DNA from: Candidatus Effluviviaceae Genus I sp.
GTDB lineage: Bacteria; Joyebacterota; Joyebacteria; Joyebacterales; Joyebacteraceae
Reading direction: 5' to 3'
Length of the DNA stretch: 64,000 nucleotides
Assembly: GCA_016867725.1 (NCBI GenBank)
Contig: VGIX01000002.1
Span: forward strand, 36,314 to 100,313
Both the position numbers and the translations under genes were made by a program. How positions within the stretch are numbered: position 1 is the first letter of the stretch; every line of letters starts with the position of its first letter. Below the pieces are notes generated by a model, which saw nothing but the letters and a program-made list of their open reading frames with translations, ran no database searches and was not told the origin of the DNA. Below are positions 3,015 to 64,000 of the stretch, in pieces.

Positions 3015-3022
3015 GAGAGACC

Positions 3023-4276: not shown

Positions 4277-4298
4277 GGACGCCGGACGGGCGGGGGCG

Positions 4299-6886: not shown

Positions 6887-6915
6887 TTGACACACGCCGG
6901 ATGCCCTGATAGAGT
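6887..6915 (+). promoter_or_regulatory. Sigma70-type promoter for the giant OMP gene (TTGACA-N17-TAGAGT, TG-extended -10)
   Basis: cTTGACAcacgccggatgccctgaTAGAGTg with a 17-nt spacer and TG at -15/-14. Implies a roughly 180-nt 5' UTR before the ATG at 7103. Confidence 0.5.
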
Positions 6916-7102
6916 GCACCGTCGCGCGCGCGCGAGCGGACGGCGCGCCCACCTGTGCGGGTCGGGCGAGCCCGACGGTACGGGTCCACGCGGCCGTCGT
7001 GTGGCGCGGCGGCGCGAAACCGATCGTTCCTGCCACTCCGGCCGCGGTCCTCTTCATGGCCCGCCGGGTCCTCCTGGGTGCCCACGGAGACGGAGCAGAC
7101 AC

Positions 7103-13100: not shown

Positions 13101-13165
13101 ACGAGAAGCGCGATCAGACGCGGAGGACCATAGGGGTGCACCTGACGGCCGAGTTCAAGTTCTGA
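7103..13165 (+). CDS. Giant outer-membrane beta-barrel protein, SprA-like (candidate type IX secretion translocon), 2020 aa
   Basis: Cleavable signal peptide MGLRRAVTLVLLALSAALAPPRVTAHG. About 2000 aa with amphipathic beta-strand periodicity throughout. The C-terminus ends ...HLTAEFKF, an aromatic OMP beta-signal. The size matches the SprA/Sov family. The upstream 5924-7102 part of the track ORF is rejected because it overlaps lptF and the promoter. Confidence 0.5.
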   Translation: MGLRRAVTLVLLALSAALAPPRVTAHGEAADPELPAAQTAAVDSLFLLPQELDQGPFLPAAPDTVSEAPAEPVETSVRPEMRPWAGRGVPVKVPFQFFRPWSVGPASIRRGLSPGWTALPSAAPSGAPFERRLAVDLAGRAAIVTRAGTAASFTSYAAPLPEYERAIRGVSARDAWGSTVTRKLKEQSARSSRGLLDIDIPMPLPEPIVRAIGAGANLKVRGSERITFGGRTSYLVDALDQESGPPSKWPQLDMQQQLTVNLEGTIGDKIHVYVDHRSGGTSYGTGKANQIRVRYEGEEDEVLQTIELGEVNLSLPGAEFVSYSGSQEGLFGAKMTAKLGKLDVVGIASKAEGKSAGASFAGTSEADSLTIKDIAYKARTYYAIDSDVLKYANVGLRSVRVYVDDRNGANDLTTGASPGRAYLTAPAGSVPPPTGPSQRGMFDELVELQDYLVDYGSGILEFLSPVNANHVLAVSYVRLDGGAVGGHDGDTLRIKLIKKDDRVAGTPWEPVRLHELKNVYDLGATNIPEDGFALEIRKRTPSGEILDNQDGVPYVRILGLDTHGPGGGGDPDGVVDREWIDFEKGHLFFPHFTPFCPEYDATDFYYAPGGGPDPIYTADELDPKNCAVYSREVFLPGDDVYFLVVKYDRPRTTFYLGQMNIIENSEVVRLNGVALTRGVDYTIYYPAGQLTLLSEEAKQPDARVTVDFDYQPFGIGGEKTLLGVRGLYNWSENVKLGTTWMYQSKGAPEDRPRLGEEPSRTVLGDVNLTATFAPGVLTRIADAVPLVSTDAPSKVTVSAEAAVCVPDPNTKGFVTIDDMEGVKNVNMLGVTRRLWTWASVPAATGVAAEDRMRISWYNPDRKVREGDLHPELTGQEANDIRTVLEIDYDAAAPSSSWAGLMRLLSKTGMDYSRDEFIEVWVHDNGYREGKLLIDLGTVSEDFYPLLAPNGTLDSEDVDQNGFDASEDTGLDRVVGVDGQNVPGDDGDDDYEYTYGTSDYSKINGTERNERLDTEDLNGNWYLDTESRYWEIEIDLSDPTYVVQDNGDLVSGNHWRLYRVPLDRAVPVNGMADWVAVKSARVWLTGLRQGGLPLMIGSMDIVGSQWEADGIRDSTGAVVPEAQMGNMSFRVTAKNTKENADYYPPFAVEINEETGIPEREQSLVLLYENIESGFSGAARKVYYSDDDYTGYESLELFVHGSAGIDPGSVFFVRIGADTVNYYEYSFEVSPGWRQRFGSLSNSLIVPLTSFSDLKLPPFDTADAAEVLGDTTSVKRETFRRVGWPSLSRVRRLMVGVRNAWADSLSRDVSGEIWVDDIRLTNVRKEIGFAERATVNVRMADLAELNVDARFVDRDFHSIKQTRGSGQDNASYNVTGTVNADRFVSALGIAVPVNVVWRRSVSRPRFSTGSDIVLGAEDSDRERTESAERSVAVSFSRKRQSPDFWTHLLMDGLSLRASAAATERRAPTRIDTTGALRGRLAYRYSPERTGMTLYRSTKLFLKPTSFRFGVESQVSRSLSYDVTRSGSQTLRADTHDKKLDADAGVDFQLLDNLSTSHSVTARRDLALQSRPWAGVNIGTETQRQYSNSLSFNPKFGAWLSPQYSFSSTYTDNHGPEVQRAGDPWGVHDLRAQTTQQISASFDLKKIFGVGAPHPPRPEPGREAAGRGERGGPPRPEGEERPDEETPPEEPAPEQPTPEQRQEEEAGPDLRRLLDPVLAFVRNMDAIEGRHTVRWSSRFDRVPPDRVPGWQYRLGLLPGEGADDRTEERSLDLGTGAKLTQDIRLKADYKRSVTGRWYRNTVADSVNLLSATEGVTQTRKATLSWGGIERIGPLKTVFTTVRARSGVEFKSSYSGPENEPTTRGDGLALAPLVSIETTFKNGLSGNLSWERRRSRNYSLRGVGSVTEDEASSTSLALKYRFSAPQGLRLPFFGEKLKFQSNLDCSLTLKTSARVSRTAMDEAGLVLAAPTSSVKDFSIAGDATYSFSRSVSGGLQITFSQSRDEKRDQTRRTIGVHLTAEFKF

Positions 13166-24241: not shown

Positions 24242-24736
24242 GTGCGGGTGCCGGTCGCGAGACTCGGACACGCCGCGGACATCCCAGTCCCGCAGTACAT
24301 GACCCCCGGGGCGTCGGGCGCGGACCTCTGCGCCGCGGTGCCCCGGCGGGTGACCATCAGGCCGGGCACGATCCGACTCATACCGACCGGTCTCGCCGTG
24401 GCTGTCCCGAGCGGCTACGAGGGCCAGGTGCGCGCCCGGAGCGGGCTGGCGCTCAGGCACGGCGTCATCGTGGCGAACGGACCTGGGACCGTGGACGCGG
24501 ATTACCGCGGCGAGGTCGGCGTCATCCTGGCCAACATCGGAGATCGGCCCTTCGCCGTCGAGCGGGGCGACCGGATCGCACAGCTGGTGATCGTGCCGGT
24601 CGTTCGCGCGTCATGGGTCGAACGCGCCGGGCTTGAGGCTACCGCGAGGGATGCCGGCGGGTTCGGACACACCGGTCGCGGCCGAAGCGGCCCGAGCCGT
24701 GACGGGGCGAAGAGACATGCCCGCAGAGCGCGCTGA
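24242..24736 (+). CDS. dut: dUTP diphosphatase
   Basis: PQYMTPGASGADLCA, ANGPGTVDADYRGEVGVILANIG and C-terminal motif V (GGFGHTGR). GTG start chosen at 24242. Confidence 0.8.
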   Translation: MRVPVARLGHAADIPVPQYMTPGASGADLCAAVPRRVTIRPGTIRLIPTGLAVAVPSGYEGQVRARSGLALRHGVIVANGPGTVDADYRGEVGVILANIGDRPFAVERGDRIAQLVIVPVVRASWVERAGLEATARDAGGFGHTGRGRSGPSRDGAKRHARRAR

Positions 24737-25724
24737 GCCCGCCTGGGCCGCCCGGGCGCTGGACCACATCTTCCTTGCGCGGCCTGCGGCGCTCGTTCCC
24801 CTGTGGGTCTTCTACTTCGGGGGCTTCGGGCTGGCGCGGGCCATGACGCCTGCGGGACCGCGAGGCGCTTCCCCGTTCGACCTGACGCCAGGCGCGCTCC
24901 TCGGCTTCCTCGCTCTTTCCGCCGCGCTTGCGGGCGGGTACCTCCTCAACCAGGTCAGCGACCGTCAGAGCGACCGGGCGAACAGGAAGCTCTTCCTGGT
25001 CTCCGACGGGCTTGTGCCCCTCTCGCACGTCTGGATTGAGCTCGGGGCGCTGTGGGCGCTCGCGGCGGTCGTGTCGCTGTGGCTCCCGTGGTCGTTCAGG
25101 GTCGCCGCGGCGCTGAGCATGCTTCTCGGCGTCACGTACTCGCTCCCGCCCGTCCACGCCAAGGCGAAGTTCCCGCTCGATCTCATCTGGAACGGGATCG
25201 GCTTCGGGGCGCTTGCGACGGCGGCGGGCTGGTCCGTGGCGCGGCCGCTCGGCATCGAGGTCGCCCGTCCCGCCCTCTGCTACGCCGTCGCCGTTGCGGG
25301 CATCATCGCCTCCACGACGATCCCGGACCGGGAGGGCGACGGCGCGTCCTCGCTGCGGACGACGGCCGTCGCTCTGGGAGAGCGCGGGGCCAGCGCGCTC
25401 GCGCTCGCGCTCGTGACGGTCGCGGCGGCCGTCGGGGTCGCGGCGCACGACGTGCCCGGGGCGGCGGGCGCGCTGCTCTCGACCCCGCTTCTCGTGCGCG
25501 CCCACCGCACGGGCGCGCGCCGCGACCGCGTGGCGGCGAACCAAGTCGCGGTCGCGGCGTTCGCCGTGGCGATGGTCGCGCGCTCCGCGTATCCGCTCGC
25601 GCTGCTGGTCGCCGCAGCGCTGGCCTCCCGCGCGTACTACCGTCGGCGGTTCGACGTCTCCTACCCGGGGCCCGGCCCGCGCGGAGGCAGCGGCGGCCAC
25701 GCGCTCGGGCGGCTTTGGCGTTGA
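24717..25724 (+). CDS. UbiA-superfamily membrane prenyltransferase
   Basis: Multi-TM protein with Asp-rich motif NQVSDRQSD (NxxxDxxxD) and a second motif DREGD. Overlaps the dut end by 20 nt. Substrate not assignable from sequence. Confidence 0.6.
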   Translation: MPAERAEPAWAARALDHIFLARPAALVPLWVFYFGGFGLARAMTPAGPRGASPFDLTPGALLGFLALSAALAGGYLLNQVSDRQSDRANRKLFLVSDGLVPLSHVWIELGALWALAAVVSLWLPWSFRVAAALSMLLGVTYSLPPVHAKAKFPLDLIWNGIGFGALATAAGWSVARPLGIEVARPALCYAVAVAGIIASTTIPDREGDGASSLRTTAVALGERGASALALALVTVAAAVGVAAHDVPGAAGALLSTPLLVRAHRTGARRDRVAANQVAVAAFAVAMVARSAYPLALLVAAALASRAYYRRRFDVSYPGPGPRGGSGGHALGRLWR

Positions 25725-31155: not shown

Positions 31156-31530
31156 CTATGAGCCGCTCGTTCCGACGAGATAGACACCCACAGCAACGAC
31201 AATGGTCCCGAGGATCCTCTGGAGGCCCATGCTCTCGCCCCAGAGGTGCCACGACGCGACCGCGACCAGCACGTAGCCGACGCCCAGCAGGGGGTACGCG
31301 TAGCTGAGCTGTACCCTGGACAGGGCCGAGATCCAGAAGACGGCGCTCACCGCGTACAGCACCAGCCCCAGGAGCGTGAGCGGCGCGGTGAGCATGGGCA
31401 CTGCCGTCGAGAGCCCGAAGTACGCCTCTCGCCCGGCACGTGCCTGGTAGCTGAGAAGCGACTGCTTGATCGAGACCTGACCGCAGACGTTAAGCAGGAT
31501 GCTCACGGCCAGTATCCAGATGTGCGTCAT
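31156..31530 (-). CDS. Small EamA/SMR-like 4-TM membrane protein, ArnE/ArnF-like flippase subunit candidate
   Basis: 124 aa from MTHIWILAVSILL, with LSYAYPLLGVGYVLVAVASW. Sits immediately downstream of the GT2 and GT83-like genes. Confidence 0.55.
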   Translation of the reverse strand: MTHIWILAVSILLNVCGQVSIKQSLLSYQARAGREAYFGLSTAVPMLTAPLTLLGLVLYAVSAVFWISALSRVQLSYAYPLLGVGYVLVAVASWHLWGESMGLQRILGTIVVAVGVYLVGTSGS

Positions 31531-31561
31531 GCTCTTCCCCCGTCGTTCGCCCGGGCGCGCA

Positions 31562-32260
31562 TCACGAAGCAACGCGCCTGAACCTCAGCCTGAGCAGCGT
31601 CGCCACGGCCTCGAACCAGTGCTTCGCGCGTATCTTCTTGCCCTCGGAGGTCTTCCTCGGGTAGTAGCGGATCGGAACCTCCCGGATGCGAATGCCGCGG
31701 GCGGCCACCAGCGCAGTGACCTCCGGGCAGAACTCGAATCCCGTGCATCGGAGAGGCAGGCTCCTGAGCAGGCTGGTTCGGAACGCCTTGTAGCACGTGG
31801 GCTCGTCGGTGAGAGCCGTGCCGAAGAGGATGTTCGTGATCCAGGTGAGCGTCACGCCCCCCAGGAAGAAGCTCGGCGACGAGATGGGGTTGGTCTTGAG
31901 CAGTCGCCTCGATCCGTACACGACCGCAACCGCAGGATCCTCGAACTGGCGCACGATGAGCTCGTAGTCGTTCGGGTCGTACTCCAGGTCCGCGTCCTGG
32001 ATGATGGTGAGCTCGCCGGCGACGTGCTCAACGCCGGTCCGAATCGCTGCGCCCTTCCCTCGGTTGCGATCGTGCCACACCACCTTGACTCTCTGCCGCT
32101 TCCCAAGCGTCTCCAGCACACTTCTGGTTCCGTCGGTCGAGCCGTCATCCACGATGACAACCTCCGACACGACGGGGCTTGCCAGCACGCGGTCCACGAT
32201 CGCCCCGATGGTCCGAACCTCGTTGAACGTGGGGACGATGACACTCAGGTTCGCGCGCAC
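31562..32260 (-). CDS. Polyprenol-phosphate sugar glycosyltransferase (GT2, ArnC/DPM1-like)
   Basis: LSVIVPTFNEVRTIGAIVDRV...VIVDDGSTDGT...DADLEYDPND. GTG start at 32260 with GGAGGAGG 6 nt upstream. Overlaps the upstream gene by 16 nt. Confidence 0.75.
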   Translation of the reverse strand: MRANLSVIVPTFNEVRTIGAIVDRVLASPVVSEVVIVDDGSTDGTRSVLETLGKRQRVKVVWHDRNRGKGAAIRTGVEHVAGELTIIQDADLEYDPNDYELIVRQFEDPAVAVVYGSRRLLKTNPISSPSFFLGGVTLTWITNILFGTALTDEPTCYKAFRTSLLRSLPLRCTGFEFCPEVTALVAARGIRIREVPIRYYPRKTSEGKKIRAKHWFEAVATLLRLRFRRVAS

Positions 32261-33519
32261 CCGACACCTCCTCCAAACGCATTCTCGGCCCCCCCAGGCA
32301 GGGAGAACCACCGCGCCGCCCTGGGACTGACGCGCGATGCGATCCGGGCGAGCGCCACCGCGCAGAACACCATGAGAAGCCCGTCGAGCGGCAGGCGGTA
32401 GCGTACGTTCGTCGTGAACACCGGGTACACGAGCGTGAAGGTCACGAGGGTCGCGAGCAGCGGCGCGTAGCGGTTCCATCGCCGCCTCTCGAGCACGATG
32501 CCGACCAGCCCAAGCAGGAACATGGGACCGTACGACAAGATCGAGATCCACGCGCTGCGGTCGGTTGTGAAGCGGTTCTGCGTCTGGGGAGTGGGGTAGA
32601 ACCGGTAGAGGTTGGCCAGTTTGGCGAAGTACAGCCGGACGGCTCTTGCCGGATCCTGTTTCACGTACTCGAGACCGCGGGCGAGGTACATGCGATCGGC
32701 TCCGGCGTACCCGATCTCCCGCGGGAGACCTCGGAGGTCCTCCGGGATGCCAACCCTCGACTGCGAGGTCGCCGTCGCGTCGGGGCTGTTACCGTAGAGG
32801 AACTCCCGCCCCCCTCCGACGGAGATGGGGATGAACTCGCCGGTGACCATGTGATTGCGGACGGTCCACGGAAGGACGGTTGCCACGGCAAGGGCCAGCA
32901 CGAGAGCTGCGTGGAGCGCGCGCCGCTCACCCCGGAAGGTCCAGAGCACCGCGACAGGCACGAGCGTGACGGCGATGGAGCGACTGAGCGCAAGGAGCCC
33001 TAGAGCGCACCCCTGCGCCGCGCTCACGGGAAGCCTCGGCGCCTCGCGCGAGACGAGGGCAAGATACACGACGAGGAGCAGCAGGATGGTCGTCGTCTGT
33101 GTGTCGTAGAGAGCGCCGGCGTTGTAGACGTAGTACGGGTAAAGACAGGCTATCGTCGCGGCGACAAGGCCGACCTTGGACCCGCGCAGGCGTCGGGCGA
33201 TCAGGAAGACGAGGTACGGAATGAGCCCGCCGAGGAGCGCCTGGAACAGGTAGGCCGCCCTGTACGAGTGTCCTGCCAGAGCGTAGGGCACCACCATCAC
33301 GAAGGCCTGAAGCGGGCCCCTCAGGACCGCATCCCCCGCACGCTCCCCGGACACGATTCGCCAGGCGATCTCGTCGTAGTAGTGCGGGTCCGGCCAGTAC
33401 AGATCATCCTCGAGCGTCAGCACGAAGGCGACCCGCACGAGCACGGCGAGCGCGACGATCCCCAGGAGCACTGCTGGAACCCGTGCGCGGACGGTTCCAC
33501 ACCCCATGGACCTCAGCAT
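32245..33519 (-). CDS. Polytopic membrane glycosyltransferase (ArnT/PMT-like, GT83/GT39 fold)
   Basis: 424 aa, about 11 TM helices plus loops (YWPDPHYYDEIAWRIVSGE), in the arrangement typical of polyprenyl-phosphate-sugar-dependent transferases. First gene of the minus-strand run ending in glnA. Confidence 0.55.
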   Translation of the reverse strand: MLRSMGCGTVRARVPAVLLGIVALAVLVRVAFVLTLEDDLYWPDPHYYDEIAWRIVSGERAGDAVLRGPLQAFVMVVPYALAGHSYRAAYLFQALLGGLIPYLVFLIARRLRGSKVGLVAATIACLYPYYVYNAGALYDTQTTTILLLLVVYLALVSREAPRLPVSAAQGCALGLLALSRSIAVTLVPVAVLWTFRGERRALHAALVLALAVATVLPWTVRNHMVTGEFIPISVGGGREFLYGNSPDATATSQSRVGIPEDLRGLPREIGYAGADRMYLARGLEYVKQDPARAVRLYFAKLANLYRFYPTPQTQNRFTTDRSAWISILSYGPMFLLGLVGIVLERRRWNRYAPLLATLVTFTLVYPVFTTNVRYRLPLDGLLMVFCAVALARIASRVSPRAARWFSLPGGAENAFGGGVGCART

Positions 33520-38724: not shown

Positions 38725-38813
38725 GGGAGGGCTAGACCTAACTGGTAAGGCGGCGGTCTTGAAAACCGCTGGGCTTTCGAGCCCGTGGGGGTTCGAGTCC
38801 CTCGCCCTCCGCC
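38725..38813 (+). tRNA. tRNA-Ser (anticodon TGA)
   Basis: Acceptor ggagggc/gccctcc + g + CCA. Anticodon loop cTTGAaa. Long variable arm. T-loop ggttcgagtcc. Confidence 0.75.
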
Positions 38814-38846
38814 AGAGGAAGCAAGCGATGGCAGGCCGTGAGCCCG

Positions 38847-38937
<91 letters not shown>

Positions 38938-38944
38938 CCGTTCA

Positions 38945-39021
38945 AGCGCCCATAGCTCAACTGGATAGAGCGTCTGGCTACGGACCAGAAGGCTGGGGGT
39001 TCGACTCCTCCTGGGCGTACC
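38945..39021 (+). tRNA. tRNA-Arg (anticodon ACG)
   Basis: gcgcccatagctcaactggatagagc. Loop ctACGga. gggggttcgactcc. Ends tgggcgtacca. Confidence 0.8.
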
Positions 39022-39293
39022 ACATGATGAGGGCTCCCTGTCTGCCGGCGGGGAGCCCTCGTCCTTTGTGGGTCGTGCGGGCCGCAACGCGGGGTCTGAT
39101 CGTGGATTCGCTGTCCCGCCTCTTGCGGACCGGCACGAGTTATGCATTGAGCATCCGCACGACCGTGTCACAGTGGCGTCCGGTCTCAAGGCCTGGGCGT
39201 CACGCGGGCCCCGGACGGCCGCCCGCTGACCGACCGATGCCGCCGGCGTGGAGCCTGCTCTCCCGGTGGGGAGCTCTCCGAAGGAGTGGCGGG

Positions 39294-40487
39294 ATGAAGA
39301 CGTGCAGACTGACGGTGCTCGTCGCGCTGACCGTCGGCGCGTGCGTGCTGTTCTCCGGCTGTTCGGGGGATGGCGGCGGCAAGTCGGCCGACCAGCTCTA
39401 CGACGAGGGCATGGGGTCGCTCGAGAGCGCGCTGAGCGGCGCGGACATGGACCAGGAACCCTGGAACTGGGGGGCGGACGTATCCGAGGCACACGAGCGC
39501 TTCGATGACGCGCTTGCGCAGAACCCGAACCACTGCGGCGCCAACCTCATGGCGGCGGCGACGCGGCTTCTCATGGTCGTCTCGAATCCGGAGCTTGGCG
39601 ACATCCTCGACACGCTCTTCCCCGAGGGCCCCAGGGCGTCCCGCGCTTCCGGCATCCTCTGGTATGCGAGGAAGCCGGACCTCCGAGGTCTCTACCAGCG
39701 GTTCTCGGACGGCGGCAGGCAGGACTTCCACTTCTCCCAGCTCCAGAACTACATCGAGCTGCAGGTGCTTCCCGCTCTCACGTACGCGGACCAGCGCCTC
39801 ACGAGATTCGAAGACATGAACTGCGCAATCTGGGTCCGTGTCGGTGAGGACTCCCTGGGACAGGACGTTCTCGCCGAGGTGGACGCGACCGACGCCTACT
39901 TCCTGCACACGGTGGTGGACGCGCTGCAGGCCGGGTGCAGCGTCGCCGTGTCGTACAACATCGACATCGACGACGGGCAGACACCGCAGTACCTGATCGA
40001 GTCGGACGCCGACTTCCTGACGCTGAGACGACCCGCGGCCATGGCGACAGCGTATGACGAACTCCTCGCGCTGGCCGCGCACCTGAGAGCGGCGTGCGAC
40101 GCGCTCGAGGCGGAGACCGACGATCAGAGCGACGATGTCTTCACGGAAACCGACGGCTACGTGCCGCTGGACGACATGTTCGGCGGCGGGGCCGTCGAGG
40201 AGATCCGGGACATCGCCGACGCCATCGAAGACGCGCTGGTCAGCGGGCTTGTGTTCAACCCCTCGGGAGACGGAGGGCCGGACATCGACGTGCTCATCAG
40301 CTTCGATGCGCTCTTCAACGATCCCATCGCCGATCTCAGGAACTACTTCCCGGCGCACTCGTGGCCCCAGCCGGATGAGATCGCGATCGACCGCCCCATC
40401 GACTTCCCGGATCCCGAGTTCCATGGGATCACCCCGGGCATGGACAACGCGGAATGGGAGCTGATCATCCAGTGGCTGGAGGAGTAG
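39294..40487 (+). CDS. Hypothetical acidic lipoprotein (no recognisable family)
   Basis: AAGGAG RBS 7 nt before the ATG. Signal plus lipobox LFSGCSG. 397 aa, Asp/Glu-rich (…IDIDDGQTPQYLIESDADFL…), ends WELIIQWLEE. Confidence 0.55.
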   Translation: MKTCRLTVLVALTVGACVLFSGCSGDGGGKSADQLYDEGMGSLESALSGADMDQEPWNWGADVSEAHERFDDALAQNPNHCGANLMAAATRLLMVVSNPELGDILDTLFPEGPRASRASGILWYARKPDLRGLYQRFSDGGRQDFHFSQLQNYIELQVLPALTYADQRLTRFEDMNCAIWVRVGEDSLGQDVLAEVDATDAYFLHTVVDALQAGCSVAVSYNIDIDDGQTPQYLIESDADFLTLRRPAAMATAYDELLALAAHLRAACDALEAETDDQSDDVFTETDGYVPLDDMFGGGAVEEIRDIADAIEDALVSGLVFNPSGDGGPDIDVLISFDALFNDPIADLRNYFPAHSWPQPDEIAIDRPIDFPDPEFHGITPGMDNAEWELIIQWLEE

Positions 40488-53377: not shown

Positions 53378-54307
53378 ATGCCAGGTCTGAAGGAGCTTGC
53401 GAAGCGGGAGGAGCTGATGTCGGGGGGCCACCGCGCCTGCGCGGGGTGTCTTCCGATGACGGCGATGCGCCAGATCCTCCTGACGGCTGGGCGCGACACG
53501 GTGTGCGGGTGCGCGACGGGCTGCGTGGAGGTCGTCACGACGATCTTCCCCTACACGGCGTGGCGGACGCCGTTCATCCACAACGCGTTCGAGAACTCGG
53601 CGGCGACGATCAGCGGGGTGGAGGCGGCGTACCGGTCGCTCCAGAGACAGGGGAAGATCGACAAGGACATGCGGTTCATAGCGTTCGGCGGGGACGGCGG
53701 CACCTACGACATCGGACTGCAGTCCCTGTCCGGCGCGATGGAGCGCGGGCACCGCATGCTGTACGTCTGCTACGACAACGAGGCGTACATGAACACCGGC
53801 ATCCAGCGCTCAGGCGGCACGCCCAAGGGCACGCAGACCTCCACGACGCCGGCGGGCAAGGTCGTGCCCGGCAAGCAGCAGTACGCCAAGGCCCTCACCG
53901 AGATCATGATCGCCCACAACATCCCGTACGTCGCGCAGGCGACCCCGGGATTCCCCAAGGACCTCTCCGACAAGGTCGAGAAGGCTCTGTCGATCGACGG
54001 CCCGTCCTTCATGAACGTCCTCGCCCCGTGCCCCCGAGGCTGGCGGTACGAGATGGAGGAGTCGATGGAGATGGCGCGGCTGGCCGTGGACACCTGCTTC
54101 TGGCCGCTCTTTGAGGTCGAACACGGGAAGCTGCGCGTCACGCGGAAACCCAAGGAGAAGATCCCCGTCGTCGAGTGGCTCAAGAAGCAGGGGCGCTTCC
54201 GCCACCTCTTCAAGGAACAGAACAGGCACATCATCGACGAGCTGCAGAGGGACGTCGACCGGAACTGGGAGTGGCTTCTCAAGAGAGAGGAGCTCTCGCG
54301 GAGCTAG
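53378..54307 (+). CDS. porB: Pyruvate:ferredoxin oxidoreductase beta subunit (TPP-binding)
   Basis: CAGCLPMTAMRQIL...GCATGC...FGGDGGTYDIGLQSLSGA TPP motif GDGx. Confidence 0.8.
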   Translation: MPGLKELAKREELMSGGHRACAGCLPMTAMRQILLTAGRDTVCGCATGCVEVVTTIFPYTAWRTPFIHNAFENSAATISGVEAAYRSLQRQGKIDKDMRFIAFGGDGGTYDIGLQSLSGAMERGHRMLYVCYDNEAYMNTGIQRSGGTPKGTQTSTTPAGKVVPGKQQYAKALTEIMIAHNIPYVAQATPGFPKDLSDKVEKALSIDGPSFMNVLAPCPRGWRYEMEESMEMARLAVDTCFWPLFEVEHGKLRVTRKPKEKIPVVEWLKKQGRFRHLFKEQNRHIIDELQRDVDRNWEWLLKREELSRS

Positions 54308-54439
54308 GCGCGTCGGTCTGGGCAGTCTCCGCCGCGCGTTCCGCCCCCGTGCCTTCTGCGCGTTCCCCTGTGGCTGGTCGCAACGGTGACCGTTCGGACG
54401 CCGCGCGCCGTCGCGGCGCGCGGGCTGGGACGAGGCAGG

Positions 54440-54937
54440 ATGAAGCGAGCCGGCGCCCTGACCCTGGACCCGGTGGCCCGTCTTCTGGCCACGGGCTTCT
54501 TCCTCGGGTACTCGCCCGCGGCCCCGGGGACCGTCGGCGCGCTCGGGTTCGCCGCTCTGCTCTGGTTCCTTGTCCCGACCGGCGCTCCGGCCGCGGCGCC
54601 CGTCGGCCTCCTCGTCATGCTGCTCTCGGTCCTTGCGTTCCTCGCCCTGGCCATCTGGGCGGCGTCGGCCGCCGAACGCGCGTTCGGCCACGACAGCTCG
54701 AGGATCGTCGTGGACGAGTTCGCCGGCATGCTCGTAGCGGTCCTCTTCCTGCCGAAGTCGCTCACCGTGTACGGGGCCGCGTTCGTCCTGTTCCGCATCG
54801 CGGACATCCTGAAGCCGTTCCCCGGCAGGCGGGTGGAGAGCCTGCCCGGCGGGCTCGGCGTCGTGGCGGATGACGTCGTCGCCGGCCTCTACGCGAACGT
54901 CCTCGTCCGCCTCATGATGGCGGCGGGATCCTGGTGA
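54440..54937 (+). CDS. pgpA: Phosphatidylglycerophosphatase A
   Basis: LATGFFLGYSPAAPGTVGALGFAALLWFL and VDEFAGMLVAVLF are PgpA family motifs. Confidence 0.8.
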   Translation: MKRAGALTLDPVARLLATGFFLGYSPAAPGTVGALGFAALLWFLVPTGAPAAAPVGLLVMLLSVLAFLALAIWAASAAERAFGHDSSRIVVDEFAGMLVAVLFLPKSLTVYGAAFVLFRIADILKPFPGRRVESLPGGLGVVADDVVAGLYANVLVRLMMAAGSW

Positions 54938-58587: not shown

Positions 58588-61269
58588 ATGAGTGACCGCA
58601 TGTCAGCGACGCAGCTCCGGGACGCCTTCATCCGGTTCTTCAAGGACCGAGGCCACGAGACCGTCCCGAGCGCGCCGCTCATCCCGAAGGACGACCCGAC
58701 GCTCCTCTTCACCTCGGCCGGCATGGTCCCCTTCAAGCCCCACTACCTTGCCGAGCGCCCCCCGTACAGGCGGGCGGTCTCCGTGCAGCGCTGCCTGCGG
58801 CTGTCGGACCTCGATGAGGTCGGTCACACGCCCTACCACGCCACGTTCTTCGAGATGCTCGGGAACTTCTCGTTCGGCGACTACTTCAAGCGCGAAGCCA
58901 TCGAGTGGGCGTGGGAGTTCCTCACGGAGGTCGTGCGGCTTCCGGAGCATCTCCTCTGGGTCACCGTGCACGCCGACGACGAGGCCGCCGCGGAGCTGTG
59001 GAAGACCGCGGTCGGCTTCCCGGCCGAGCGCATCGTCCTCCTGGGCGACAAGGACAACTTCTGGGGTCCGGCGGGCGATTCCGGACCGTGCGGCCCCTGC
59101 TCCGAGATCCACTACGACATGGGGCCCGAGCTCGGCTGCGGCCGCCCGGACTGCAGGCCCGGCTGCGACTGCAGGCGCTACTTCGAGGTCTGGAACCTGG
59201 TCTTCCCGCAGTACCTCCAGCGGAAGGACGGGACGCGCGTTCCCCTCGCGCGGCCCGGCATCGACACCGGGAGCGGGCTCGAGCGCCTCGCCTCCGTGGT
59301 CCAGGGCGTCGGGAGCATCTTTGAGACCGACATTCTCCGACCGGTGGTCGATGCGGTGCGGGACGAGGTCGAGAACGCGGGCGGCGCGCGCCCGAGCGGC
59401 CCGGTCGGCACGGAGCTCGCGGTTGTCGCCGACCACGCGCGCGCCGCGACGTTTGCGATCGCGGAGGGCATCCTGCCGTCGAACGAGGCGCACGGGTACG
59501 TGGTCAGGCGGCTCGTGCGCCGGGCCGTGCGCCGCGGGCTCTCGCTCGGGATCAAGGGGCCGTTCGTGTACCGCGTGGGCGGCGTCGTGGTCGAAACGAT
59601 GAAGGGCGCCCATCCGCATCTGGCGGCCAAGCGTGAGCACATCGCGCTCGTCCTGAAGTCGGAGGAGGAGCGGTTCGACGCGACCATCGCGCAGGGCACG
59701 GCGGTGTTCGAGGAGATCGCCGAGTCGGTGAGGGGGTCGGGGGCGACGACGATCCCCGGCGAGCGGGCGTTCGCGCTGTACGACACGTACGGGTTCCCGC
59801 TGGACCTCACGGAGGAGATGGCGCGCGAGCGCGGGCTGTCCGTGGACACGGCCGGCGCGGCGGCCGCGATGAAGGCGCAGAAGGAGCGGGCGCGGCGGGC
59901 ATCGGCGTTCGCCGGCGCGGCCGGAGAGCGGGCGGCGTGGCGCGGCGCGAGCCGTCCGGGAACCGACTCGGTGTTCGTCGGCGGGGACCTCGGCGCGTCC
60001 GTCGGACCCGAGGCAGAGGAGGCCGTGGGGCCGCTGCTGTCGGATCCGGTGGAGACCGAGGTCGTGGCCGTTCGGGCGGGGCGGACGCCGGGGGACACGG
60101 AGTTCGTGGTGACGCGCACGCCGTTCTACGCGGAGGCAGGCGGGCAGGTGTCGGACGCGGGGCGCGTCGAGGCCGCGGGGGCCGCGGCAGACGTCGTGAA
60201 CGTCTCCCTCGAGGACGGCCGCGCGGTGCACGTCGCGCGAGGCCTCGCGGCTGACTTCGGTGGCGCGTCCGTGCGCCTCCGGGTGGACCTCGCGAGGCGC
60301 CGGAGGACCGAGAAGAACCACACGGCGACGCACCTCCTGCAGGCCGCCCTCCGCCGAACGCTCGGCGACCACGTGCACCAGTCGGGCTCCTGGGTTGGGC
60401 CCGACCGCCTGCGTTTCGACTTCACGCACTTCTCGGCGCTCACCGAGACGGAGACCGCGCTCGTTGAGGACACGGTGAACGCATGGATCAGGAGCGACCT
60501 GGCGGTGCGTCCCGAGGAGACAGCGATCGACGACGCGCTGAGTCGTGGGGCGATGGCCCTCTTCGGCGAGAAGTACGGCGAGCGGGTGCGCTGCGTGTCG
60601 GTCGGCGGTGTGAGCCTCGAGCTGTGCGGCGGGACCCACGTCAGGCGAACCGGCGAGATCGGCTCGTTCTCTGTCATCTCGGAGACGAGCGTGGCATCCG
60701 GCGTCCGGAGGATCGAGGCGGTCACCGGGGTCGAGGCGGTCCGCCGCGCCCGGCTGCTGGCGGCCTCGGGCAAGCGGGTCGCCGAGGCCCTGCGGACGAC
60801 ACCGGATGCGGCGGCGGCGCGCGCCGAGGAGCTCATTGCCGAGATCGCGTCGCTCAGGAAGGACGCCGCCCGCGCGCGGCTGCGGGCGTCTGGCGAGGGG
60901 ATGGCGTCCATCGCGGGGGGCGCGCGCGACGTGGCGGGGGTGCGGGTTGTCGCGGCCCGCGTCGATGCCGCGGACGTCCCTTCGCTTCGCGAGCAGGCGG
61001 ACCGCCTCCGCGACGCTCTGGGGAGCGGCGTGGGCGTGCTCGGCGCGGAGATCGACGGGACCGCCGTGGTCATCGCGGTCGTGAGCGACGACCTCGCGGA
61101 CGCGAAGCGGCTTGCGGCCGGCGACGTGGTCCGTGAGGCGGCCGCGCTCATGGGCGGGCGAGGCGGGGGCAAGCCCCGGCTCGCGCAGGCCGGCGGCGGC
61201 GACCCGGCGAAGCTCGGCGGGGCGCTGGAGTCGGTGTACCAGGTGGTGGAGCGCCTCCTTGGGCGCTAG
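58588..61269 (+). CDS. alaS: Alanine--tRNA ligase
   Basis: FKDRGHETVPSAPLIPKDDPTLLFTSAGMVPFKP. Editing-domain HxxxH/CxxxH (TATHLLQAAL...LELCGGTHV). C-Ala domain. The ATG at 58588 overlaps the recX stop; the ATG at 58600 is the alternative. Confidence 0.9.
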   Translation: MSDRMSATQLRDAFIRFFKDRGHETVPSAPLIPKDDPTLLFTSAGMVPFKPHYLAERPPYRRAVSVQRCLRLSDLDEVGHTPYHATFFEMLGNFSFGDYFKREAIEWAWEFLTEVVRLPEHLLWVTVHADDEAAAELWKTAVGFPAERIVLLGDKDNFWGPAGDSGPCGPCSEIHYDMGPELGCGRPDCRPGCDCRRYFEVWNLVFPQYLQRKDGTRVPLARPGIDTGSGLERLASVVQGVGSIFETDILRPVVDAVRDEVENAGGARPSGPVGTELAVVADHARAATFAIAEGILPSNEAHGYVVRRLVRRAVRRGLSLGIKGPFVYRVGGVVVETMKGAHPHLAAKREHIALVLKSEEERFDATIAQGTAVFEEIAESVRGSGATTIPGERAFALYDTYGFPLDLTEEMARERGLSVDTAGAAAAMKAQKERARRASAFAGAAGERAAWRGASRPGTDSVFVGGDLGASVGPEAEEAVGPLLSDPVETEVVAVRAGRTPGDTEFVVTRTPFYAEAGGQVSDAGRVEAAGAAADVVNVSLEDGRAVHVARGLAADFGGASVRLRVDLARRRRTEKNHTATHLLQAALRRTLGDHVHQSGSWVGPDRLRFDFTHFSALTETETALVEDTVNAWIRSDLAVRPEETAIDDALSRGAMALFGEKYGERVRCVSVGGVSLELCGGTHVRRTGEIGSFSVISETSVASGVRRIEAVTGVEAVRRARLLAASGKRVAEALRTTPDAAAARAEELIAEIASLRKDAARARLRASGEGMASIAGGARDVAGVRVVAARVDAADVPSLREQADRLRDALGSGVGVLGAEIDGTAVVIAVVSDDLADAKRLAAGDVVREAAALMGGRGGGKPRLAQAGGGDPAKLGGALESVYQVVERLLGR

Positions 61270-61297
61270 GCCCGACGCGGGGCCGCGGAGGGACTGC

Positions 61298-62092
61298 ATG
61301 GCCGGCGGGGGAGCGGTGTGGGGGCGCCTCATGCGCGGGATCGAGACGCTGGGCGCGCTCTATCTCGTCCTCCTGGATCCCGACGGCCGCGCTCCGGAGA
61401 ACAGCGCGCGCCTCGCCGCGAGCGCGGAGGCCGCGGGAGCCGATGCCGTCCTCGTGGGCGGAAGCCTGTCGCTTCGCGGACGCGTCGCCGAGTGCGTCCG
61501 CGCGGTGAAGGGTCGCGTCGGCATCCCCGTGATCATCTTCCCCGGGAACGCCGGCTTCGTGGTCCCGGACGCCGACGCCATCCTGTTCCTGTCGCTCGTG
61601 AGCGGGCGGAACCCGGAGCTTCTCATCGGCGAGCACGTGCGGTCGGCGCCGGCGATCCGCGAACTGGGGATCGAGCCCATCCCGACGGCGTACCTCCTCG
61701 TGGAGAGCGGCTCGACGACGTCGGTGGAGTTCATGAGCGGCACGCGCCCGCTTCCGAGGACCAAGCCCGACATCGCGATGGCGCACGCTCTGGCCGCCCA
61801 GTACCTCGGCATGCGCCTCGCCTTCTTCGACGCCGGGAGCGGAGCCCGCGATCCCGTGCCGGCGGAGATCGTGGCGGCGGTGTCGTCCTTCGTGGACATC
61901 CCGGTCATGGTCGGCGGAGGCATCCGGTCGCCCGAAACGGCCGTGGAGCTCGTGCGCGCGGGCGCGAGGCTCGTCGTCACGGGAGACGTCATCGAGCGCA
62001 CCGGCGACGTCTCGCTGCTGGAGGCCTTCGCGGCCGCGGTGCACGGCGCTGGGCGCCGGGCCGGCGGCGCGACGTTGCGGGAGGAGGGGTAG
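61298..62092 (+). CDS. GGGP synthase/PcrB-family prenyl-glyceryl-phosphate synthase (TIM barrel)
   Basis: LDPD, IPVIIFPGN, DAILFLSLVSGRNPE, PTAYLLVESGSTTS, LAFFDAGSG, IPVMVGGGIRS and VVTGDVIE match PcrB/GGGPS conserved blocks. GGAGGG RBS before the ATG at 61298; ATG at 61331 (MRGIETL) is the alternative. Confidence 0.75.
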   Translation: MAGGGAVWGRLMRGIETLGALYLVLLDPDGRAPENSARLAASAEAAGADAVLVGGSLSLRGRVAECVRAVKGRVGIPVIIFPGNAGFVVPDADAILFLSLVSGRNPELLIGEHVRSAPAIRELGIEPIPTAYLLVESGSTTSVEFMSGTRPLPRTKPDIAMAHALAAQYLGMRLAFFDAGSGARDPVPAEIVAAVSSFVDIPVMVGGGIRSPETAVELVRAGARLVVTGDVIERTGDVSLLEAFAAAVHGAGRRAGGATLREEG

Positions 62093-62096
62093 CCAC

Positions 62097-63161
62097 ATCC
62101 GAGCACTGGTCCTTTCGGGAGGGCGCGGCACGCGTCTGAGGCCGATCACGCACACGAGCGCCAAGCAGCTCGTGCCCATCGCCAACAAGCCCATTCTCTT
62201 CTACGGCCTCGAGGCCATCCGGGACGCCGGCATCGTCGACGTCGGCATCGTGGTGGGCGAGACACACCGCGACATCGAGGCGGCGGTGGGCGACGGGGCG
62301 CGGTTCGGACTGCGCGTCACATACATCAGGCAGGAAGCCCCCCTCGGCCTCGCGCACGCGGTCAAGATCTCCCGCGACTACCTTCGCGACGAGCCCTTCG
62401 TCATGTATCTCGGCGACAACCTCATCAAGGGCGGCATCGCCGCCTTCGTCGAGGAGTTCGGCCGGTTTTGCCCGAACGCGCAGATCCTGCTCGCGCGCGT
62501 GCGGAACCCGCAGGAGTTCGGCGTCGCCGAGCTGTCGGGCGAGCGCGTCGTCCGGCTTGAGGAGAAGCCGGCCCATCCGAGGTCCGACCTCGCGCTCGTC
62601 GGCGTGTACATGTTCGACGCGACCGTCTTCGACGCCGTGGACCGTCTGAAGCCGTCCAGGCGCAACGAGCTCGAGATCACGGACGCCATCCAGGGCCTCG
62701 TGGACGCGGGGCGCTCCGTGCGGGCGCACGAGGTGACCGGATGGTGGAAGGACACGGGGAAGCTCGACGACATCCTCGAGGCCAACCGCATGATCCTCGA
62801 GGGAGCGGCGCCGGACGTGCGCGGCCTTGTGAACGCGGCCTCGCGGATCGACGGCAGCGTTGTGGTCGAGGAGGGCGCGGTCGTGGAGGACAGCGTGCTC
62901 CGTGGCCCCCTCATCGTGGGGCAGCGCTCGAGGATCGTGCGTTCGTACATCGGGCCCTTCACCTCGATCTACCACGACGTCGTCGTCGAGAGTTCGGAGA
63001 TCGAGCACAGCATCGTGCTCGAGAACTGCAGGATCGTGAACCTGAGGCAGCGCATCGAGCGGAGCCTCATCGGCAAGGACGTGGAGATCGTGAAGTGCGC
63101 GAGCATGCCGAAGGCGTATCGCTTCATGGTGGGGGACGCCAGCCGCATCGAGGTGCCGTGA
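62097..63161 (+). CDS. rmlA: Glucose-1-phosphate thymidylyltransferase, long form with C-terminal LbH; apparent non-canonical start
   Basis: The essential N-terminal motif IRALVLSGGRGTRLRPITHTSAKQLVPIANKPIL starts at 62097. That is 25 codons upstream of the first canonical start (GTG at 62172) in this frame. GGGAGGAGGGG sits 7 nt before ATC at 62097. Confidence 0.65.
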   Translation: MRALVLSGGRGTRLRPITHTSAKQLVPIANKPILFYGLEAIRDAGIVDVGIVVGETHRDIEAAVGDGARFGLRVTYIRQEAPLGLAHAVKISRDYLRDEPFVMYLGDNLIKGGIAAFVEEFGRFCPNAQILLARVRNPQEFGVAELSGERVVRLEEKPAHPRSDLALVGVYMFDATVFDAVDRLKPSRRNELEITDAIQGLVDAGRSVRAHEVTGWWKDTGKLDDILEANRMILEGAAPDVRGLVNAASRIDGSVVVEEGAVVEDSVLRGPLIVGQRSRIVRSYIGPFTSIYHDVVVESSEIEHSIVLENCRIVNLRQRIERSLIGKDVEIVKCASMPKAYRFMVGDASRIEVP

Positions 63162-63186: not shown

Positions 63187-64000
63187 GTGAGGCGCGTTCT
63201 CGTCACGGGCGCCGCGGGCATGCTCGGGTCGGAGCTGGTGCGGACGCTCGCCGCCACCTCCGACGTCGTCGCGGCCGACCTGGCGGACTTCGACATCGCG
63301 GACCCCGAGGCGACGCGGGCGGCCGTCCTCTCCGCGGCACCGGACGTCGTCGTGAACTGCGCGGCGTACACCGACGTCGACGGCGCCGAGAAGGACAGGG
63401 AGAGGGCTTTCGCCGTCAACGCCGCAGGCGCGGGGAACGTGGCCCGCGCGGCGGCAGGGGTCGGCGCCGCGGTCGTCCACGTGAGCACGGACTACGTGTT
63501 CGACGGCGCAAACGCCGCTCCGTACCGGGAGGAGGACGCGCCAGGCCCCGTCAACGCGTACGGGGAGTCCAAGCTGGCCGGGGAGCGGGAGGTGGCCGAG
63601 GCCGGCGGCCGGGCCCTCATCGCGCGGACGGCGTGGCTCTACGGGCGCGGAGGCCGCAACTTCGTCGAGACGGTCCTCACGCTCGCGAGGCGCGGGGGAC
63701 CGCTTCGGATCGTGAACGACCAGGTGGGCCCCCCGACGAGCGCGCGCGACCTCTCGGTCATCATCGCCGAGCTGATCCCGACGGGGGCGACCGGCGTCGT
63801 GCACGCCACGAACTCGGGCAGCTGCTCGTGGTACGAGTTCGCGCGGGCGATTCTCGCGGCGGCCGGCGTCCGGGGTGTCGATGTGCGTCCCATCCGGACG
63901 GCGGAGCTGCCGCGCCCGGCGGCGCGGCCCTCGTACTCGGTCCTGTCGCTCGATCGTCTTGTCTCCCTGACCGGCTGGCTCCCGAGGTCATGGGAAGAGG
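63187..64000 (+). CDS. rmlD: dTDP-4-dehydrorhamnose reductase, 3'-truncated by the window edge
   Basis: VRRVLVTGAAGMLGSELV Rossmann, VVNCAAYTDVDGAEKDRERAFAVN and YGESKLAGE (YxxxK) motifs. GTG at 63187. Runs off the window end. Confidence 0.75.
   Translation, partial: MRRVLVTGAAGMLGSELVRTLAATSDVVAADLADFDIADPEATRAAVLSAAPDVVVNCAAYTDVDGAEKDRERAFAVNAAGAGNVARAAAGVGAAVVHVSTDYVFDGANAAPYREEDAPGPVNAYGESKLAGEREVAEAGGRALIARTAWLYGRGGRNFVETVLTLARRGGPLRIVNDQVGPPTSARDLSVIIAELIPTGATGVVHATNSGSCSWYEFARAILAAAGVRGVDVRPIRTAELPRPAARPSYSVLSLDRLVSLTGWLPRSWEE

Follow-up and report, generated by a model that had tools for sequence, protein, structure and literature searches.

A probable group IIb GGGPS from an Eisenbacteria-like host and a UbiA-superfamily prenyltransferase of a separate subfamily

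Any bacterial geranylgeranylglyceryl phosphate synthase (GGGPS) bears on the 'lipid divide', the question of whether ether lipids of the archaeal type, or mixed membranes, are made by any living bacterium. Homologues of GGGPS and DGGGPS are widespread in FCB phyla (PMC6431249, PMC7852524). The DNA analyzed here, a stretch of 64,000 nucleotides referred to as the window, carries on its forward strand a gene for a PcrB/GGGPS-family protein (61298..62092) and another for a UbiA-superfamily prenyltransferase (24717..25724). An initial annotation had read the former as an archaeal-type enzyme of the GGGPS/PcrB family, of the sort that some FCB-group bacteria carry, and had proposed that the latter could catalyze a DGGGPS-like second prenylation. 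The locus thereby raises two questions: which kind of enzyme the putative GGGPS is, and whether the two genes belong to one pathway.

The GGGPS gene codes for a protein of 264 amino acids. Its ATG start codon is located 29 nt past the stop codon of alaS, and a Shine-Dalgarno-like GGAGG is seen in the sequence 6 nt upstream of the ATG (61287..61291, forward strand). Scans for terminators and promoters around the gene yielded no signal above chance. The product matched the Pfam family PcrB (PF01884) with 141.6 bits (E = 3.4e-41, cut-off 23.9) and exceeded the cut-offs of the NCBIfam models NF003198 (277 bits, cut-off 247), TIGR01769, the GGGP equivalog (206 bits, cut-off 161.55), and TIGR01768 (184 bits, cut-off 113), bearing out the presence of a PcrB/GGGPS protein at this position.

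Among solved structures, the highest scores were obtained with archaeal group IIa enzymes (4mm1 from Methanothermobacter thermautotrophicus, Mt, 184 bits; 6jo3 and 6nke from Thermoplasma, 174 and 171 bits), which are approximately 41–43% identical to the window protein, and with the biochemically characterized group IIb enzyme of Flavobacterium johnsoniae (FjGGGPS, 4jej; 167 bits, approximately 42% identity). The group I structure 2f6u gave 39.6 bits, and the PcrB structures 1viz, 3vzx and 4nae gave 27–30 bits. NCBIfam models of group I type also remained far under their cut-offs (NF003199, 47 bits, cut-off 169). We further constructed neighbor-joining trees, a distance method, in which M. thermautotrophicus and T. 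acidophilum were the only two archaeal references and TACK sequences were absent. In these trees, the bacterial GGGPS including 4jej were split from the two archaeal proteins with 100% bootstrap support, while the window protein clustered with the Eisenbacteria loci L013, L014, and L019 (98–99%). Judged by its sequence, the protein is a group II enzyme of the bacterial IIb clade and not a Firmicutes PcrB. The kind of enzyme assigned by the initial annotation was thus confirmed by group II scores and tree; a placement within the heptaprenyl-specific PcrB of Firmicutes, which had been named as the opposing outcome, was not found (27–40 as compared to 167–184 bits).

The conserved residues point in the same direction. 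Across 21 aligned GGGPS homologues, including MtGGGPS, the motifs G180-S181-G182, G206-G207-G208, and T228-G229 are invariant, and D27-P28 is conserved in the window protein. The GSG, GGG, and TG loops are phosphate-binding and correspond to the standard loops beta-alpha 6, 7, and 8 of the TIM-barrel GGGPS, which hold the glycerol phosphate (PMC9385802). The glutamate on strand beta-6 of the Mt enzyme (YLEAGSG) is replaced by aspartate (FFDAGSG), a change common to many bacterial homologues. V88 aligns to the limiter V86 of the Mt enzyme, which corresponds to I90 in the Fj enzyme; a small aliphatic residue at this place on helix alpha-3' is associated with a C20 donor (PMC9385802), from which we infer a C20 donor for the window enzyme as well. 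F145 aligns to the anchor residue W141 of Mt, a position occupied by phenylalanine or tyrosine among bacterial homologues. As an aromatic residue (or histidine) at this anchor on helix alpha-5' marks the hexameric type of group II (PMC9385802), the presence of F145 suggests that the enzyme is probably a hexamer, in contrast to the dimeric FjGGGPS, which has an arginine at this position.

Taken together, the window protein shares with the group IIb enzymes of F. johnsoniae, Chitinophaga pinensis, and Ca. Cloacimonetes (Villanueva et al. 2020) the Pfam and NCBIfam families, the position in the bacterial clade, the phosphate loops, the small aliphatic limiter, and an FCB-group host (PMC9385802, PMC7852524); its identity to Cloacimonadota enzymes amounts to 47–49%. 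With archaeal group IIa enzymes it shares the fold blocks, the limiter position, and the aromatic anchor, but it branches apart from them in the tree and lies in a bacterial gene context (alaS, recA, rml genes). A heptaprenyl-specific enzyme of the PcrB type (group Ib), as in Bacillales, would be of the same superfamily and Pfam family (PF01884), would likewise be bacterial, and is described as making an ether-linked prenylglyceryl phosphate, as by analogy the window enzyme may do. However, Bacillales PcrB belongs to the other group and has its chain-length determinant elsewhere in the protein (PMC9385802). The low scores of PcrB structures and group I-type models, together with the valine at the group II limiter position, effectively refute a PcrB-type function, which we regard as very improbable.

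The gene is embedded in a bacterial neighborhood. Upstream lies alaS (58588..61269, forward strand), encoding an alanyl-tRNA synthetase with the Pfam domains tRNA-synt_2c, tRNA_SAD, and DHHA1. Downstream, on the same strand, follow rmlA_long (62172..63161), which encodes a long-form glucose-1-phosphate thymidylyltransferase (TIGR01208, 419 bits, cut-off 320), and rmlD (63187..64000), encoding a dTDP-4-dehydrorhamnose reductase and truncated by the end of the window (Pfam RmlD_sub_bind, 324 bits; TIGR01214, 338 bits for the full gene in locus L001). The position of rmlA_long is kept within Eisenbacteria, as it occupies the same place in L013, L014, L019, L032, L078, and L174. The conserved gene string also includes pgpA (54440..54937, forward strand; L001 3143–3640 plus an offset of 51297), which would encode phosphatidylglycerophosphatase A, a bacterial head-group enzyme. 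It is recognized by Pfam PgpA, scored 82 bits against NF008288, under the cut-off of 226, and is mentioned for context only.

Related GGGPS loci were collected by a genome scan with peptide patterns drawn from bacterial sequences, and the best 80 were kept; that all of these are bacterial is partly due to the origin of the patterns. In 47 of the 80 loci, alaS is located directly upstream of the GGGPS gene, and this arrangement occurs in Eisenbacteria, Ignavibacteria, Zixibacteria, Latescibacterota, Gemmatimonadota, Bacteroidota, Fibrobacterota, KSB1, and GN15. Such adjacency over many FCB-related phyla indicates that the gene was vertically inherited. Compared to genome GCA_043815815.1, GGGPS is 68% identical, AlaS 60%, PNPase 69%, and RecA 85%, so that the value for GGGPS falls within the range of AlaS and PNPase. 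The third-position GC of the gene (0.92) resembles that of its neighbors, indicating that it is native to this genome of 70% GC. In addition, the identical 264-aa product with the same neighbors was predicted on 15 contigs from several samples (JGI gene callers). That the gene arose through faulty assembly or binning, or was recently acquired from an archaeon, would draw solely on the archaeal flavor of the family; it is contradicted by the alaS–GGGPS synteny, the third-position GC, the recurrence on 15 contigs, and the 100% bootstrap split from the two archaeal references, and is extremely improbable. Synteny and composition rule out archaeal contamination, a chimera, or recent horizontal transfer. 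The data support an old, vertical inheritance of the gene. In L032, a more distant locus of Eisenbacteria, and in the related locus L078, a gene for geranylgeranyl reductase (GGR; TIGR02032, 189 bits, cut-off 158.8) is inserted between alaS and GGGPS, which connects GGGPS in this phylum with the chemistry of isoprenoid lipids.

The UbiA-superfamily prenyltransferase (335 aa; PF01040, 66.6 bits, cut-off 34.2) is the only one encoded in the window. Its aspartate motifs, N78-x3-D82-x3-D86 and D204-x3-D208, consist of five residues that are all invariant in its family; in this respect, the initial annotation had described the open reading frame correctly. None of the NCBIfam models was matched at its cut-off, BchG being the best with 50 bits (cut-off 212). 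A grouping with MenA, UbiA, or CyoE, which had been named as counter-evidence to a DGGGPS-like role, was not seen: the MenA model NF004751 gave 19.5 bits (cut-off 264), and ubiA and cyoE models were not matched at E ≤ 0.01. The DGGGPS models did not recognize the protein either. It scored 19 bits with NF009521 (cut-off 296) and 32.5 bits with NF009523, whereas the DGGGPS-type proteins encoded next to GGGPS in Cloacimonadota and Poribacteria, named geranylgeranylglycerol-phosphate geranylgeranyltransferase at NCBI, scored 201–224 bits with NF009521 and 201–237 bits over both models. A profile built from these DGGGPS-type proteins matched nothing in the window, although E values up to 10 were admitted; the top 120 matches listed for such a profile all resemble proteins of Poribacteria or Cloacimonadota, and every named one is from these phyla. 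Profile-profile alignment of the two groups resulted in an identity of 18% at an hhalign probability of 97%.

These differences extend to the motifs. The window UbiA displays the signatures NQxxDxESDRxNxKLF, YSxPP, and DxxGD and a unique C-terminal tail, RxYYxxRFxxxYP, while the DGGGPS-type motifs NDxxDxxIDxxNKPxRPxPSG and KDxEDxEGD are absent from it. Its third motif reads T-x2-D-x3-D instead of the DxxDxxxD of DGGGPS, the first aspartate being replaced by threonine; residue roles for this comparison were taken from the Mj enzyme (PMC9385802). With DGGGPS-type UbiA proteins (M. jannaschii 6m31; Cloacimonadota, Poribacteria) it has the superfamily fold and two Asp-rich motifs in common, but it differs in signatures, tail, and conserved neighbors. 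As assigned by scores and motifs, it is a member of a separate, uncharacterized UbiA subfamily, here called A1-type. The subfamily is fairly widespread: its profile retrieved no fewer than 353 clusters (clustered at 50% identity; E ≤ 1e-30), with named members in Eisenbacteria, WOR-3, and Poribacteria. The nearest solved structures were AfUbiA of Archaeoglobus fulgidus (4tq3, 67 bits) and chlorophyll synthase (9sau, 59 bits), followed by MjDGGGPS (37 bits). The first two share with the window UbiA the YSxPPxxK motif and the DxxxD second Asp motif, but their scores are far under the 200–390 bits reached within the family. AfUbiA itself, to our knowledge, has no known natural substrate, and the photosynthesis context of chlorophyll synthase was not seen in the host of the window UbiA.

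The genomic context of the two genes was compared as well. The window UbiA is located 36 kb from GGGPS, within the order pnp–dut–UbiA–trkH that is kept in Eisenbacteria. The distance of 36–38 kb across Eisenbacteria, with UbiA between dut and trkH, reflects large-scale synteny among housekeeping genes. We scanned for loci of A1-type UbiA with an alignment of 10 sequences and tallied the neighbors over 27 clades: a TPR protein was found in 8 clades, a NodB-type deacetylase in 7, GGR and a DGGGPS-type gene in 2 each, and GGGPS (within 10 kb) in 1, which also has a separate DGGGPS-type gene. The usual company of the A1-type subfamily is envelope genes, not GGGPS. In Poribacteria, one gene string contains A1-type UbiA and, adjacent to it, a distinct gene of DGGGPS type, along with GGR and GGGPS; as both types are retained, the A1-type protein is not the DGGGPS there. 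In locus L107, GGR is located directly upstream of A1-type UbiA. The window UbiA is not orthologous to DGGGPS, and the second-step role proposed for it is not supported, in view of the model scores (19 as compared to 201–224 bits), the profile identity of 18%, and the coexistence of both types in Poribacteria. A second UbiA homologue was identified 3.2 kb downstream of GGGPS, past the end of the window (L001 14002–14889). It was rejected as a DGGGPS candidate, being of the decaprenyl-phosphate phosphoribosyltransferase type (NF008977, 250 bits, cut-off 234), with prs nearby.

The remaining genes of the pathway were searched for in approximately 80 kb, comprising the window and approximately 8 kb on either side. 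Neither G1PDH (egsA/araM), CarS, GGR, a DGGGPS-type protein, nor a GGPP synthase was found in this region. For this reason, the substrates that GGGPS would use and the pathway that would follow it are assumptions. In this respect the locus differs from archaeal group IIa systems, as G1PDH, CarS, and DGGGPS are not nearby, and from that of Cloacimonadota, where a DGGGPS gene is adjacent. We consider it likely that the window encodes a group IIb GGGPS with a C20 first-step role and that the window UbiA is not its partner. The protein would be a functional, vertically inherited enzyme of an Eisenbacteria-like bacterium, a soluble TIM-barrel prenyltransferase that would take a C20 geranylgeranyl group from GGPP and attach it to glycerol phosphate at the C3 hydroxyl. 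The first ether bond would be formed in this step, and GGGP would be the product. G1P would be the preferred acceptor by analogy with characterized relatives; GGGP formation from GGPP and G1P has been described for the relatives from F. johnsoniae and Cloacimonetes (PMC7852524, PMC9385802). Substrates, chain length, and oligomeric state, along with what becomes of GGGP, are inferred. If a second prenylation occurs, the likeliest enzyme would be a UbiA of DGGGPS type whose gene lies in another part of the genome, following the pattern of other FCB-related phyla.

The fate of GGGP can be envisioned in two other ways. GGGPS may act alone, yielding a mono-ether prenylglyceryl phosphate that is subsequently modified, like the product of B. 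subtilis PcrB, and that would serve as a minor lipid or anchor rather than as a membrane diether. The precedent of PcrB (PMC9385802) is consistent with such a role, as are the housekeeping and sugar-nucleotide genes surrounding the gene and the finding that 71 of the 80 best related loci have no second-step enzyme close to GGGPS; moreover, what GGGPS does in Bacteroidetes and in most FCB phyla is not yet known (PMC6431249). However, in many FCB phyla DGGGPS homologues are reported to accompany GGGPS (PMC6431249, PMC7852524), GGR adjoins GGGPS in Poribacteria and, within Eisenbacteria, in the more distant locus L032, and Cloacimonetes GGGPS and DGGGPS gave rise to unsaturated PG-archaeol in E. 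coli (PMC7852524). We regard this possibility as rather unlikely.

Alternatively, GGGPS and the window UbiA may act in sequence, the product being an archaeol-type core of digeranylgeranylglyceryl phosphate. In Eisenbacteria, the A1-type protein would then be a non-orthologous replacement of DGGGPS. Its Asp-rich motifs are intact, its nearest solved relatives fall into the AfUbiA/chlorophyll synthase/DGGGPS sector of the superfamily, and A1-type UbiA shares a contig with GGGPS in at least three related genomes. The gene string in Poribacteria, the position of GGR in L107, and the lack of a DGGGPS-type gene in the host sequence within the window and approximately 8 kb on either side would also fit. 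Against this stand the scores and motifs described above, the retention of both types in Poribacteria, the single clade out of 27 with GGGPS within 10 kb, and a distance explained by the synteny around dut and trkH, and a sequential action of the two enzymes appears improbable. There is a small chance that the window UbiA is a novel enzyme in the isoprenoid-lipid or envelope metabolism of bacteria, acting either as a third prenyltransferase next to DGGGPS-type protein, GGR, and GGGPS, for which the Poribacteria string would speak, or, in Eisenbacteria, in place of DGGGPS.

The host was suspected to belong to the FCB group, and this was supported by the RecA, PNPase, and AlaS identities and by a gene for the T9SS protein SprA in the host sequence, which place it in the FCB-affiliated Candidatus Eisenbacteria. 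Thus, the initial annotation stood with regard to the kind of GGGPS and the lineage, but not with regard to the window UbiA as DGGGPS-like partner. A search of the literature for Eisenbacteria or Poribacteria in connection with GGGPS or ether lipids returned nothing specific. Eisenbacteria are absent from published lists of GGGPS carriers, while the kind of enzyme is already known. The locus shows no pathway and presents no new lipid biology. As the proposed second enzyme is a UbiA of a different kind and other pathway genes are not visible, its value lies in a corrected annotation and in pointing to an unstudied UbiA subfamily. If A1-type UbiA did replace DGGGPS, this would enable Eisenbacteria to build diether lipids. 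The GGGPS locus adds Eisenbacteria to the FCB-related lineages that possess the predicted first enzyme of ether-lipid synthesis.

The GGGPS gene (window 61298-62092, + strand) is an open reading frame of 264 aa with an ATG start, preceded by a GGAGG motif at 61287-61291 (+) and located 29 nt past the stop codon of alaS, in a window with a GC content of 69.8% and nearly all genes on the + strand. The JGI gene callers predicted the identical protein, with constant neighbours, on 15 contigs that stem from several samples within a single metagenome series. In agreement with the initial annotation, the product belongs to the PcrB/GGGPS family, scoring 141.6 bits against Pfam PcrB (cut-off 23.9), 277 bits against NCBIfam NF003198 (cut-off 247) and 206 bits against TIGR01769 'GGGP' (cut-off 161.55); it also exceeded the cut-off of TIGR01768. 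The protein had further been proposed to be of the archaeal type rather than a heptaprenylglyceryl phosphate synthase (PcrB), and comparison with all solved structures bore this out. Scores were 184 bits to the GGGPS of Methanothermobacter thermautotrophicus (4mm1, group IIa), 174 and 171 bits to those of Thermoplasma (6jo3 and 6nke, group IIa) and 167 bits to that of Flavobacterium johnsoniae (4jej, group IIb), compared to 39.6 bits to A. fulgidus GGGPS (2f6u, group Ia). Bacillales PcrB (group Ib) reached only 27-30 bits, and a heptaprenyl PcrB identity was therefore ruled out. The D27-P28 motif is kept and the phosphate-binding loops are in place (G180-S181-G182, G206-G207-G208 and T228-G229). 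V88 aligns with the limiter V86 of the M. thermautotrophicus enzyme and F145 with its hexamer anchor W141, a position that is occupied by Arg in the dimeric F. johnsoniae enzyme (residue roles according to the review PMC9385802). The gene encodes a GGGPS of group IIb that is native and conserved and whose substrate-binding residues are intact.

The closest named proteins, at 68-69% identity, are from Candidatus Eisenbacteria MAGs. When genomes were scanned at one per GTDB species, the 80 best loci were all bacterial, an outcome partly built in by search patterns drawn from bacterial sequences; they belong to Eisenbacteria, Latescibacterota, Gemmatimonadota, Poribacteria, Zixibacteria, Ignavibacteria, Bacteroidota, Cloacimonadota, Marinimicrobia, KSB1, Calditrichota and Fibrobacterota. 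In neighbour-joining trees, which are distance-based and include two archaeal references only, the protein grouped with those of loci L013, L014 and L019 (98-99% bootstrap), and all bacterial GGGPS including that of F. johnsoniae stood apart from the M. thermautotrophicus and Thermoplasma acidophilum enzymes (100%). The GGGPS from a Synechococcus sp. UW140 MAG (L039), also with alaS upstream, clustered tightly with Bacteroidota and Ignavibacteriales sequences; the contig is probably mis-binned and its GGGPS not cyanobacterial.

The alaS-GGGPS pair of the window (58588-62092), with alaS immediately preceding GGGPS, recurs at 47 of the 80 best loci of the genome scan (L013-L092, each with GGGPS placed at about 10001). 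This deep syntenic pair, of which we found no earlier description in the GGGPS literature searched, spans Eisenbacteria, Ignavibacteria, Zixibacteria, Latescibacterota, Gemmatimonadota, Bacteroidota, Fibrobacterota, KSB1 and GN15. Together with a tree that roughly tracks phyla, the adjacency argues for vertical inheritance of GGGPS from an early FCB ancestor, as proposed by Villanueva et al. (PMC7852524). The alaS synteny, the tree and a third-position GC of 0.92, the same as in neighbouring genes, exclude contamination, a chimera or recent archaeal transfer.

Identity to the Eisenbacteria MAG GCA_043815815.1 is 85% for RecA, 69% for PNPase, 60% for AlaS and 68% for GGGPS, and both organisms have the gene string POR-pgpA-cinA-ligT-recA-recX-alaS-GGGPS-rmlA(long)-rmlD-gmhA-udk-UbiA2-ispE-spoVG-prs. 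Within the same string, the sister Eisenbacteria genome L174 (2427-3531) carries pgsA, encoding a CDP-alcohol phosphatidyltransferase, directly upstream of pgpA; the window has pgpA only at this position (about 54300-54937). The suggested membership in the FCB group fits with an open reading frame at 5885-13165 (+, 2427 codons stop to stop) with an SprA_N domain of type IX secretion. It follows a 2.9-kb stretch after metK (3014-5885) containing long open reading frames without Pfam match; a further 574-aa frame at 38763-40487 (+) has coding-like codon bias and no Pfam match.

The UbiA-superfamily protein noted at 24717-25724 (+, 335 aa) was confirmed as such by a Pfam UbiA score of 66.6 bits (cut-off 34.2) and by both Asp motifs, N78-x3-D82-x3-D86 and D204-x3-D208. 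No NCBIfam model reached its cut-off, the scores being 50 bits for BchG (TIGR01476, cut-off 212), 41 for PRK12875 (NF009516, 205), 19.5 for MenA (NF004751, 264) and 19 for DGGGPS (NF009521, 296). Among solved structures the nearest were AfUbiA at 67 bits and chlorophyll synthase at 59 bits; MjDGGGPS scored 37 bits. A profile of this family, here termed A1-type, matched 353 clusters formed at 50% identity (E <= 1e-30); with the exception of one truncated sequence, the best 150 matches all extend to the conserved C-terminal tail. Named members occur in Eisenbacteria, WOR-3 and Poribacteria and are named no more finely than 'UbiA family prenyltransferase'.

The initial annotation had considered this protein as a DGGGPS-like second prenylation enzyme. 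As bacterial DGGGPS references we used the UbiA genes that immediately precede GGGPS at five loci of Cloacimonadota, an arrangement validated in E. coli by Villanueva et al. (PMC7852524). The resulting profile matched proteins beside GGGPS in Poribacteria (150-165 bits, intact copies) and had no match in the window at a threshold as loose as E <= 10. Among the closest database relatives of the DGGGPS-type proteins, all named matches but two carry the name geranylgeranylglycerol-phosphate geranylgeranyltransferase. NCBIfam DGGGPS models gave 201-237 bits for DGGGPS-type proteins versus 19-39 bits for A1-type proteins, and profile-profile comparison gave 18% identity (E = 6e-11). The motifs differ as well: NQxxDxESDRxNxKLF, YSxPP, TTIPDxxGD and a C-terminal RxYYxxRFxxxYP tail in the A1 type, NDxxDxxIDxxNKPxRPxPSG and KDxEDxEGD in the DGGGPS type. 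The two are different families of one superfamily. Both coexist in Candidatus Poribacteria (L079 4708-10687 from lpxD to GGGPS; also L067, L054 and L047), in the order bamA-skp-lpxD-deacetylase-UbiA(A1)-UbiA(DGGGPS-type)-SpoU-GGR-GGGPS-hrcA, so that the A1-type protein is not the DGGGPS there. Taken together, a role of the window UbiA as DGGGPS partner of GGGPS is not supported. GGGPS-DGGGPS co-localisation in bacteria has seemed restricted to Cloacimonetes (PMC7852524); the Poribacteria string looks like a second, fuller case.

Among the window genes and about 8 kb on each side, Pfam and NCBIfam models detected no G1P dehydrogenase, CarS, GGR, DGGGPS-type UbiA or polyprenyl synthase; a G1P source is not in view in most FCB genomes either (PMC6431249, PMC7852524). 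A second UbiA (UbiA2; L001 14002-14889, equivalent to about 65299-66186) lies 3.2 kb downstream of GGGPS, beyond the window end. It is of the decaprenyl-phosphate phosphoribosyltransferase type (NF008977, 250 bits, cut-off 234) and lies near prs, with udk and ispE as flanking genes, as in Eisenbacteria L174, L013 and L019. GGR occurs between alaS and GGGPS in Eisenbacteria L032 (8734-10732) and the related L078 (8486-10442) (TIGR02032, 189 bits, cut-off 158.8), and is absent from this position in the window's own clade. By analogy to characterised relatives (PMC9385802, PMC7852524), GGGPS, probably a hexamer, would condense GGPP with glycerol phosphate, preferably G1P, to GGGP. Following the argument published for Cloacimonetes, the likeliest onward route would involve a DGGGPS-type enzyme encoded elsewhere and then bacterial CdsA, PgsA and PgpA; alternatively, the end product may be a mono-ether, as it is for PcrB.

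In Eisenbacteria, the gene order truB-ribF-rpsO-pnp-dut-UbiA-trkH-trkA-asnS/aspS-glnA is kept at 51% UbiA identity. UbiA and GGGPS are 36-38 kb apart in both genomes compared, and their shared presence in 64 kb is therefore a matter of synteny across the genome and not of a functional cluster. We surveyed the neighbours of A1-type genes at 91 loci, which fall into 27 clades when grouped at 55% identity. In 8 clades the next gene downstream, usually overlapping, encodes a TPR protein of about 320 aa, and in 7 a NodB-type deacetylase (PF01522) gene immediately precedes UbiA; examples are L011 7162-9898, L012 7292-8942, L118 1-2120 and 30 other metagenome loci. GGR and DGGGPS-type UbiA were each neighbours in 2/27 clades and GGGPS in one, Poribacteria, whose gene string gives a weak hint of some link between the A1 type and isoprenoid lipid genes. 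A separate trio of adjacent window genes at 31156-33507 (-), coding for a small EamA-like protein of 124 aa, a 232-aa glycosyltransferase of family GT2 and a 420-aa GT-C glycosyltransferase that is PMT_2/ArnT-like, resembles an Arn-type set of polyprenyl-phosphate-sugar synthase, flippase and transferase.

GGGPS and DGGGPS homologues have been reported in all 12 FCB phyla surveyed by Coleman et al. (PMC6431249), and many FCB and related phyla are listed by Villanueva et al. (PMC7852524). Eisenbacteria are not named in either study, nor with GGGPS elsewhere in the literature searched, and the window GGGPS thus adds to a known kind. Of the elements described, the A1-type UbiA subfamily alone has some potential to be novel. 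Its TPR/deacetylase pairs often lie beside lpxD, bamA, skp, uppS or cdsA, which suggests a function in envelope lipids.
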